Positions 14,847 through 17,982 of a stretch of DNA of 64,000 bases are shown piece by piece; the stretch's first letter is position 1; every line of letters begins with the position of its first letter. The notes beneath the pieces were generated by a model. It had not been told where the DNA came from and did not search any database. It worked only from the letters and a program-made list of their open reading frames with translations. Source of the DNA: Candidatus Heimdallarchaeum endolithica. Its GTDB lineage: Archaea > Asgardarchaeota > Heimdallarchaeia > Heimdallarchaeales > Heimdallarchaeaceae. The stretch spans positions 352,001 to 416,000 of the forward strand of contig CP084167.1 of assembly GCA_021513715.1 (NCBI GenBank), written 5' to 3'. The translations under genes were made by a program, and so were the position numbers.

Positions 14847-16253
14847 ATCCACTTTTCAGATGAAAAAAAGGTAATTTCCATTGCCGAAAAGGTAGTATGT
14901 TTTTATTATGACCATATTCCAATAAGATGGTTTTTTTCACTGGAGAAGAGTCCTTTTTCAAAAAAAACTAGTTGCAAAGTTTAAAAGTTTATAATTAATA
15001 TTGAAGTGAAAAAGAGATAAGAAAAGAAGAAAAAATAAAAAAAAACAACATTAAGATTCTTGAACTTTCTCCTCTTCAAGTAGATCTTTTATTTTTTCCT
15101 CAATTTTTTCTAGCTGTGTCATATTAGCAAATATAAGTTCAGTTGTAATTTCCCAATATTTAGTTAAAGTAGAATAGGAAAATTTGTTGATAAAAGGAGA
15201 AGTTTTTTCTACTACTTTTCTGAATTTTCCTAAAACACCTTTTGCAAGTTCAATCTCCTTATAGGCTTCTAACTTTCTAATCTTAATTTCCTCTATATTT
15301 TCTAATCCATCTATTTGGTTTACTAGTTTGTCATAAATATCATATTCCTTTAGAGCTCGTAGATTACTATCAATCCAATTTCTCACTTTATCTAATTCTT
15401 CATTTAGCTTCTTTTTAGCTTTTAACCATTTTTTATTCTCAATTAACTCCTCATTTTCTAGATAATATGTTGCGAAGTCCACTAAAACCTCAAGGAATTC
15501 ATTGAAAAAAGTATCAATTTTCGCTCTTTCTTCTTTCTTAGATATAAGTTCTTCAATTTTTATTGTTTCAATAATATTAATTTTCTTTTCTATTTCTCTA
15601 ATTTTCTTCTTGAAAAGGGATAACAATGCTTGTTCTTTATTTTTGTTCTTTTCTATCAGGAAAAGTACCAATAGCACAGTTAATCCTATAAATAGTATTC
15701 CAGAACCTAAAGCAGAAAATACAATAATTATTATTTTTACTTTTCTTTGTTTCTCATTGACTAATGGATCTCTTCCTTGAATTAATTCATCATTGTCTGA
15801 AATTCCATCACCATCAGTATCAGCTTTTCTAGGATTAGTTCCATAATATTTGACCTCTTCATAATCTATTAAACCATCACCATCAGTATCAACATCTGTA
15901 GATTCAGTAAAATATTCAATCACTTCTTCGTAATCTGTTAATCCATTTCCATCTGTATCTGGGTCATTGGGATCAGTTCCATAACCTAGTACTTCAGTTA
16001 CATCATTTAACCCATCATCATCAGTGTCAGCGTCCAATGGGTCTGTATTATAAGCATAAACTTCATCAGCGTCAGATAACCCATCATCATCAGTGTCATA
16101 ATCTAAAGGGTCAGTGAACTAGTAGAATATCTCTGACCAGTCATCCAACCCATCCATGCTTTACTTTTTGCGAAATTTTGCGAACATTAGGATAGAGAGT
16201 ATGGATGAAAAAGAAAAAAAGAGACTTTTTATAAGAAAAAATAGTAGAAATAA

Positions 16254-17746
16254 ATGAAGAGAAGAAGAAGAAAAAGAAAAATAAGAGGAAAAAAGATGGA
16301 GAAGATAGTCAAAACTTTGAAAGTTAGAATAAAGAATGAAGTTTTGACGAGGAGAAAAAAGGAAAGATTAAGGAGAATAACAGGGAGAGACACAAGGATA
16401 ATAGAAAAATATGTAAAAATTATTCATCACAACAGAAGAAGACTGTGTATGAAAACAAAGAAAGGAGAAATAAGAGTACATAAAGGGAAGTTAGATGAAC
16501 TAACATTAACAACATCAAGGATAAAAAAAGTAGAAGAGCGAAGAGAGACTGTTCCTCATGACCTTAAAAAGATGTTTCCCTATTGTTCTCACGATGAGTT
16601 TCAAGAGTGCAGAGATATAGCAGTACAACTGTACGAGCAAGGATATAGACCTGAAGCCACTCGTCCTCCAAAAAAGAGACCCCGAAGACAACTAATCAAT
16701 AAAAAAAGATTTATTCTTACTAATTTACCAAAAGAGAAAAATAACTCTATTTCTCGTTGGTGGGTAGGAATAAGAGACTCATTAGACACGTGGAAAAGAA
16801 AGACCCCCTACCATCAGAAGTTGTGGTTACCTTTAGAGATGAGCACTTTTCATCAAAAAGAATTGAAAAAAGGACAAGTGAAAAGCCTGGAATTAAGATA
16901 TAAACGTTCTACACGTGAGTGGTGGGTGTATTTTCAATTAGAAGTTCTTCCTCCTTCTTCTTTTCTAAGCGATAATTCCTCTTCTTCTTCTCTTCCTCCA
17001 GCTGTGCTGGGGATAGATCTAGGGATAAACATTCCTGCTGCAGGAGTGTTACTAACTCCCAAAAAGAAATTAACTATTAAAGAAATAAAATTTTGGCATA
17101 CCAAACAGTGGAATAGAATTAATCACAGATATAAACTCAAGTTTTCCCGTCTTCAGAGGAAAGCAGCTTTAAATGACCAGTCGGGTAAAAAACACCAAAT
17201 TTATCGTTTCCTTAGTCTTCTCAGAAGAAGATATAGAAACGTTAAACGGTCCTATATTCACCAATTTATAAGCGACGTTGTGCGGACGATAGAGACCTAT
17301 GCAAAAGTGTATGACCTTTTCGTCGTCGTAGGTTACCCCAAAAATGTTAGAAAAAAAAAGGAAAAGGTAAAAGTACTCGTTATTATCGTAGAAAACTTTA
17401 CCAGTGGAATTATGCTCATATTCTTAGTCTTCTCCGTCGAGCATTGATATTAAGAGGTTTTGAATCTCACCGCATTCTCACTTTAGACGAAAGAGGAACA
17501 TCTTCTCATTGTTCCCGTTGTGGAAAAGAAGTTTCTCGTCCCGTCAGAGGATTAATACACTGTCCCTTTTGTAACTATACTTACCACTCTGATTTAACAG
17601 GAGCTAGAAATATTGCTCGTAAATTCCTTAGTCATCTTTTTCGTCCCCGTACTACAACTATTACTGATTATTTTACTGGTCAAAAGTTTAGTCTTACGCA
17701 TTATACTGTTTGCCGAGGACTCAGCCATTGGTTGCAGTCCCAGTAG
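16254..17746 (+). CDS. tnpB: TnpB/Cas12f-like RNA-guided nuclease, RuvC-II rearranged, split by a -1 frameshift at the A9 run (17351-17359)
   Basis: GIDLG (RuvC-I), VVVGYP (Gly at canonical Glu), LDERGTSSHCSRC, CPFC, HSDLTGARNI (RuvC-III); adding one A fuses both ORFs. Confidence 0.87.
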
Positions 17747-17982
17747 ACAAAAAGAAAGATAATTTCTCTATTTTAGGGATAATTCTTTCTTTTTTGTCTC
17801 TCGTGGAGTGAAGAGAACATCTTCTCTTCTTTATGATTCCCCCGATTCGTGTATGACGTCTGCCTTAATCCTTCTTCTTTCATTGTATGTTAGGATTAAG
17901 TTCTCAAGAAACTAATAATTCTCTATCTTTGTTTTTTTCTTGAAAGACTAAGTTCGACAAACTTCGCAAAAAGTAAATCATG
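17717..17982 (+). ncRNA. Candidate omega/reRNA guide scaffold
   Basis: Five stems (17717-17740, 17745-17799, 17810-17829, 17864-17900, 17904-17943) between the tnpB 3' end and the element end; G-U pairs favour the + strand. Confidence 0.55.

Follow-up and report, generated by a model that had tools for sequence, protein, structure and literature searches.

A multi-copy, non-autonomous TnpB element of Heimdallarchaeum with terminal inverted repeats centered on an AT dinucleotide

Elements of the IS607 family (IS607, IS1535, ISC1926, ISXfa1, and CboIStron; PMC6188088, PMC4058570, 10.1101/2023.11.20.567912) have a dinucleotide core, one copy of which is at each junction and a single one in the target, with no target duplication. 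They are described as lacking terminal inverted repeats (TIRs) and as having only subterminal, offset repeats (PMC6188088). The GG core is typical of the family but not universal, as the IS607 elements of the host family considered here appear to use GT. In CboIStron, which is known from experiments, the core is GG, the TAM is TGGG, the element's own right end (TCGG) escapes cleavage, and the scaffold ends on the core (10.1101/2023.11.20.567912). Several other tnpB-carrying systems share features with the element described below. The TnpBs linked to DDE transposases and their solo derivatives (PMC10691335), together with Fanzor2* and Fanzor1 (10.1101/2023.08.09.552727), have TIRs, non-autonomous tnpB-only copies, and a relocated RuvC-II glutamate, and the movement in trans of solo tnpB bounded by TIRs is already known as a general phenomenon. 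The solo tnpB of IS200/IS605 (IS1341-type) and the rearranged TnpB2 proteins such as TvTnpB (PMC10530073) share the tnpB-only layout and a right-end guide RNA, which for the present element is predicted, and the arrangement with the relocated glutamate is active in TvTnpB and in Fanzors (PMC10530073). Asgard archaea also contain TnpB loci associated with aCas1 (the Cas1H-Asgard groups; Altae-Tran et al., 2023; PMC10691335). No paper on the present family of elements was found in the literature searched, and TnpB is unmentioned in Wu (2022), in Valentin-Alvarado (2024), and in a 2026 archaeal IS survey.

The window analyzed here is a stretch of 64,000 nucleotides from the closed genome (3,326,783 bp) of Candidatus Heimdallarchaeum endolithica. 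It contains one broken copy of a multi-copy Heimdall (Asgard) mobile element that carries only the gene of an RNA-guided nuclease and a predicted guide RNA, and the features concerned are listed below in window coordinates.

15051–19786, minus strand: interrupted host gene for a beta-helix/TSP3-repeat surface protein (in H. aukensis, intact with 968 codons)
16154–16157, plus strand: host left motif CCAT, predicted TnpB TAM (CCAT is to the left of 6/6 A-subfamily copies; TAM role proposed from IS607 precedent)
16155–16185, plus strand: left TIR, comprising the core, six variable bases, a T-tract, and tandem TTTTGCGAA units
16156–16157: left core copy AT, the last two bases of CCAT
16296–17746, plus strand: tnpB, frameshifted near 17354 (family start MEKIVK at 16296; open frame from 16254)
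17016–17018, 17489–17491, and 17591–17593: tnpB active-site codons for the RuvC-I Asp, the relocated RuvC-II Glu, and the RuvC-III Asp, in addition to a C4 zinc finger
17750–17981, plus strand: predicted omega-RNA scaffold (5' limit approximate; compensatory variants in three lineages)
17833–17838 and 17976–17981: ATGATT and the terminal AATCAT, paired inside the predicted omega-RNA
17952–17982, minus strand: right TIR (right core AT at 17980–17981; the G at 17982 is host sequence)
17982–17999, plus strand: right host flank, predicted guide (directly after CCAT in the empty allele; putative role)
53348–54097, minus strand: chromosomal 249-aa serine recombinase (resolvase plus recombinase-type domain), candidate trans-acting mobilizer

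The two arms are 31 nt long, complementary at 27/31 positions (87%), and the top inverted pair of the region, with a tandem TTTTGCGAA-like unit in each, in agreement with a preliminary description of this DNA. Since the same ends bound 14 full-length copies in the genome, the inverted ends of the window element are not due to chance. That description had also proposed that excision restores the host frame, which is borne out: removal of the element leaving one CATG restores the minus-strand frame (...NDTDMDGLDD...), and the orthologous site of the congener Ca. Heimdallarchaeum aukensis is empty, with a single CATG within an intact 968-codon ORF. The window copy of the surface-protein gene has a further break between 18617 and 18965. 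As to tnpB being the only gene inside, no transposase is present in any copy examined, but the window tnpB is itself frameshifted and split into two ORFs (16254–17447 and 17444–17746); its alignment with an intact copy shows a 7-nt gap in an A-run near 17354, which may be a sequencing error.

The search for further copies and a target consensus, suggested at the outset, gave the 14 full-length copies and a total of 75 hand-curated insertions. The full-length copies form three subfamilies with 92.5–99.2% identity within a subfamily, and the intact tnpB copies encode 480–504 aa. Three further elements of the same genome (D1, D2, and E) carry an unrelated TnpB between the same kind of ends, and two families of gene-less MITEs (~19 and ~8 copies, about 27) retain only the ends and the RNA region. 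The same junctions are found in other genera of the Heimdallarchaeaceae, on copies with tnpB alone and on MITEs of 350 bp. The mapped insertions of H. aukensis are empty sites in H. endolithica, the reverse being true of the window site, and hence movement went on after the two species split. Given such recent movement in both species, the true inverted ends, and the lack of an internal transposase, the element is non-autonomous and presumably mobilized in trans. At the left end, positions +1 to +6 beyond the core are far more variable between copies than are the mirror positions at the right end; a possible origin from flank bases, in the manner of the coupling sequences of tyrosine recombinases, was not supported, as matches were near the permutation expectation. 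Two D-type copies of H. aukensis that lie in opposite orientation have, between them, the left flank and the right flank of the single E insertion in H. endolithica, which suggests an inversion of about 17 kb between copies.

The junction had been thought to read equally well as a CATG duplication, an AT core, or TG...CA ends with no duplication, a view that does not survive the comparison of copies. AT is the sole sequence common to both junctions and the target in the 75 insertions, with C before it in 74/75 and G after it in 60/75 (vs. 12% genome-wide), so that the target is C-AT-G. A CATG duplication is ruled out by right flanks that often start with A, C, or T, by D-family right ends that read GAT, by left ends of which some start CATA, and by a MITE within the sole Y1 tnpA of the genome, the removal of which restores ATG CCA TCG GGA. 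The same copies rule out the TG...CA reading, since AT alone flanks the element at either end and has a single copy in the target. The center of symmetry of the inverted repeat is AT, and the empty site retains one core copy, although an AT core and the duplication of an AT target would be identical in sequence and indistinguishable on that basis alone. Four well-resolved 5'-truncated fragments each start at an internal N-AT-G joined to a host C-AT (ATG makes up 1.2% of positions), suggesting that a bare core can take the place of the left end; a deletion running between the left core and an internal one would yield an identical truncated product. The extra target base is on the left only in the A family, as expected of a TAM, and the target of the D/MITE5 family is partly palindromic (TCATGA).

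The encoded protein has the TnpB/Cas12f fold (Foldseek matches to Cas12f and TnpB; Pfam PF07282) and a zinc finger, and its RuvC triad of Asp256, Glu416, and Asp450 is invariant in 26 homologues. The early likening of the element to the TIR-bounded carriers of Fanzors extends only to the relocated RuvC-II glutamate, an active-site rearrangement also seen in TvTnpB, which is known to be active (PMC10530073), and not to RuvC-I, which reads DLG rather than the DPG of pro-Fanzors. The predicted right-end RNA is conserved, with a covarying structure, and has no match in Rfam. Its last six bases pair with an upstream hexamer, and the terminal pair is compensated (ATGATT/AATCAT, ATGAGT/ACTCAT, and ATGATC/GATCAT, with TCAAC/GTTGA and TCGAC/GTCGA in the D family), hence the core marks the end of the predicted scaffold, and the guide is expected to begin in the host flank. 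The base preceding the host CAT is family-specific, being C in families A and C, A or G in B, and T in D. With a background of 34–37%, T precedes the host CAT in 1/56 cases in families with a TCAT right end and in 17/18 in the D family with its GAT right end (18/19 before one orthologous duplicate was dropped), where the copies counted are related and the insertion sites are separate events. This base always differs from that of the element's own right end, which is the pattern expected for a TnpB TAM that avoids self-cleavage, and from it the family TAMs are predicted to be CCAT, RCAT, and TCAT.

The likeness to IS607 includes the dinucleotide core without duplication, a predicted TAM ending in the core, a predicted scaffold ending on the core, putative self-avoidance via the upstream base, and repeated subterminal motifs. 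The arrangement established by experiment for CboIStron is predicted for the window family, with AT for GG. However, the core is AT rather than GG, the inverted repeats at the ends extend to the core and have it as their center, no MerR-HTH serine TnpA was found inside the copies or in the two closed genomes, and the TnpB is from a different clade than those of the IS607 elements of the host family. On the TnpA, the GG core, and the lack of TIRs, the window element is not a member of IS607. Nor is it an IS200/IS605 element, as it has inverted ends in place of the hairpin ends of that group, a point on which the preliminary description was right, and prefers a base 3' of the insertion; it is also neither a pro-Fanzor nor, in a strict sense, an aCas1 locus.

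Homologues of the window-element TnpB are found across the Asgard archaea. In 28 loci with varied neighbors, from Thorarchaeota and another family of the host's order, tnpB is head-to-head with a gene for a protein of ~1,870 aa that has no Pfam match. The N-terminal domain of this protein has the Cas1 fold (the best 12 matches are all Cas1 with Z of 8.9–13, the next being 6.2), and a Glu, a His, and an Asp of the protein are invariant. The loci in question correspond to the aCas1-TnpB loci that Altae-Tran et al. described (PMC10691335). In a quick tree with a midpoint root, the solo TnpBs come out as the sister clade of the aCas1-linked TnpBs, to which they are 30–35% identical, and are not nested among them (SH-aLRT 94 and 89). 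The D/E TnpBs are far outside both clades and have a canonical RuvC-II, and distant relatives of the D-clade TnpB adjoin Y1 tnpA. The window element and the aCas1 loci have in common the relocated RuvC-II glutamate, a related right-end RNA, and the right junction, where CAT is followed by G: four sister-lineage loci, two with a confirmed aCas1, end in GATCAT with G across the junction, and so this junction is older than the loss of aCas1. In contrast to those loci, the window element has no aCas1 gene, is 1.8 kb rather than about 7.7 kb in length, exists in many copies with accompanying MITEs, and has a left end that is inverted, a feature not found at the aCas1 loci. Those of Thorarchaeota have GGTCA or GGTTC as their terminal sequence. 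At the aCas1-TnpB loci examined, no IS607 TnpA was seen. A search of 31 genomes of the host family for aCas1 found none, and neither did a search of the H. endolithica genome with filters off; the profile used also misses canonical Cas1 and may have missed a more divergent paralogue. Makarova et al., in 2020, reportedly provide a further reference for aCas1-associated Asgard TnpB loci. The original proposal of a distinct archaeal vehicle mobilized in trans is thus sustained as regards a non-autonomous element with no internal transposase; the element is less isolated than was supposed, given its IS607 logic and its sister relation to the aCas1-linked TnpBs, and to speak of a distinct vehicle for TnpB is plausible rather than established.

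No transposase is present in any of the >100 loci with these ends, and the autonomous partner gene that the preliminary description had hoped for did not emerge from the TnpB neighborhoods in 60 relatives, GTDB genomes, and metagenomes, from matches to the right-end pattern, or from viral contigs, all of which yielded only tnpB-only copies, MITEs of 280–380 bp, and fragments. The H. endolithica genome has only two serine recombinases, both chromosomal and of 240–249 aa. Such chromosomal enzymes are present in 29/31 Heimdallarchaeaceae genomes and in 0/30 others, the same range as that of both TnpB clades with these ends, although this co-occurrence lies in one lineage and does not represent independent events. 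They are host-like and not flanked by element ends, and neither a cognate site nor a physical link to the element came to light. The two paralogues (window 53348–54097 and genome 316728–317450) are about 75% and 46% conserved across the Heimdallarchaeaceae, respectively, and the second belongs to a conserved operon that also includes a small GTPase-like gene. A motif resembling the element ends, close to this second recombinase, proved to be a MITE remnant, and a palindrome behind island-borne recombinase copies is in the next gene and occurs nowhere else. With respect to an IS607 TnpA, neither closed genome has a match to NF033518 over the cut-off, and the IS607 elements of the Heimdallarchaeaceae were rejected as partners as they have other ends and another TnpB. 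The IS607 elements of the host family and order have AC(C/T)GT on the left and GTG(C/T)GT on the right, which suggests a core of GT rather than GG, and TnpBs of 610–650 aa. The closed genome also has one tyrosine recombinase. In one genus, a tnpB of the window-element clade follows a gene for a HerA/VirB4-like ATPase of ~900 aa in five loci, which have a 430-bp conserved leader and ragged left boundaries, and H. endolithica has a homologue of this ATPase at genome 2121098–2123857. This ATPase is a candidate partner at most.

We propose that the element follows an IS607-like logic with an AT core, in which strand exchange is carried out in trans by a recombinase, most likely of the serine family, and we give this proposal an even chance of being correct. 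A trans-acting serine-family recombinase would pair the two inverted ends and exchange strands at the 2-bp AT, releasing a circle whose junction would be an inverted repeat centered on AT, and the host would reseal precisely. The circle would then integrate at a different C-AT-(G) site. With the right flank as its guide, TnpB would read an N-CAT TAM (CCAT for the window subfamily) and cut the resealed empty allele, with repair restoring the element, and the element itself would be spared as its right end reads TCAT. The window copy with its broken tnpB and the MITEs would depend on intact copies. Candidates for the mobilizer would be the two chromosomal serine recombinases confined to the host family, or else a TnpA of IS607 type that is present only transiently or has since been lost. 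The more specific notion that the elements never encode a transposase of their own and borrow a conserved chromosomal serine recombinase of the host family is doubtful. Some integrative elements do borrow XerCD, and if the notion were true, two unrelated TnpB clades and the MITEs would have converged on the same AT-core inverted ends, with the TAM of each TnpB filtering which insertions persist. Subterminal motifs that differ between subfamilies in one host are awkward for a single enzyme.

The same ends might instead be recognized in trans by a DDE transposase that moves an element running from G to C and duplicates a 2-bp AT target, which we consider unlikely. IS630/ISL2-type enzymes duplicate short targets. 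An AT duplication would give the identical sequence, and true TIRs, the many MITEs, and the partly palindromic D/MITE5 target would all fit, as would the fact that six of six DDE-linked TnpB groups have inverted ends and that solo tnpB with such ends are reported to be moved in trans (PMC10691335). However, the closed genome has no IS630 or ISL2/Harbinger-type enzyme, and its IS481-like, 307-aa DDE, 381-aa DDE, and IS6-like elements, evaluated as sources of the mobilizer, have unrelated ends. In further contrast to the DDE-linked TnpBs and Fanzors, no duplication extends beyond AT and the terminal base varies (read inward, the D-family ends have G vs. C, and A is the first base of several left ends), and fragments that start at an internal ATG without any left end, like the TAM-like base on the left only in the A family, do not suit such an enzyme.

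An origin as aCas1-TnpB elements that lost the integrase gene, and which a transient aCas1 or a divergent paralogue would move in trans, is suggested by the sister relation of the TnpBs and by the GATCAT ends of the four sister-lineage loci, but is in our estimate quite unlikely. Known Cas1 integrases duplicate long targets. No aCas1 was found in the family genomes searched and yet insertions differ between the two species, an inverted left end was not seen at the aCas1 loci, the thorarchaeal ends are of another sequence, and the unrelated D-clade TnpB uses the same ends. Highly improbable is a derivative of IS200/IS605 moved as single-stranded DNA by a Y1 (HUH) TnpA, with CAT as both the left target and the right cleavage motif. 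The lack of duplication, the TAM-like left motif, a stem-loop near the right end, and the Y1 IS605 element in the genome are consistent with it. The ends of Y1 elements are same-strand hairpins, though, whereas the left end of this element repeats the right end in inverted form and has no matching hairpin. A preferred G 3' of the insertion is also not expected. The only Y1 IS605 element (genome 923900–926000) has ordinary ends that differ from those of the window element, a tnpA interrupted by a MITE of this very system, and a frameshifted tnpB. Other explanations have very little probability, and AT-core exchange by a recombinase acting in trans remains the reading that we prefer.

What is new here is the AT-only core over many insertions, the reciprocal pattern of TAM and right end, the internal-core truncations, the sharing of these ends by two unrelated TnpBs, and the connection to the aCas1 loci. 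The core, TAM, and guide logic of IS607 would thereby be extended to an AT core and TIRs in an archaeal lineage close to eukaryotes, in which one kind of vehicle carries two TnpBs that are unrelated. The predicted TAMs of CCAT, RCAT, and TCAT apply to compact nucleases with a rearranged active site, and the elements provide natural substrates for the question of what moves the aCas1-linked TnpB elements. If a host recombinase does serve as the mobilizer, this would be a new route of spread for RNA-guided selfish elements, and would represent a small recombinase with a target of three to four bases.

Some additional features of the window and of the related loci may be mentioned. An IS481-like element with a 312-aa transposase, one of many near-identical copies in the genome, is at window 13826–14856, and the match to the orthologous region of H. 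aukensis ends at its edge. A degenerate copy of the 307-aa DDE element with AAGCATGTCC ends is at 22324–23402, and ~80 bp from it, near 22242, is a site that is empty here and holds a TnpB element in H. aukensis. Other genes for large beta-helix/TSP3 surface proteins and membrane proteins are at 10557–13673, 47995–49479, and 59204–62305, and an ArsR/Acr3-like arsenic cluster is at 50553–52175. Several of the thorarchaeal aCas1-TnpB loci abut tRNA genes, one having a 17-bp tRNA-end repeat on both sides. The GTTCACTCA motif that Altae-Tran et al. describe downstream of tnpB is flanked by variable segments able to pair together, and to judge from these the "hypervariable" region around GTTCACTCA resembles a covarying stem more than a spacer.
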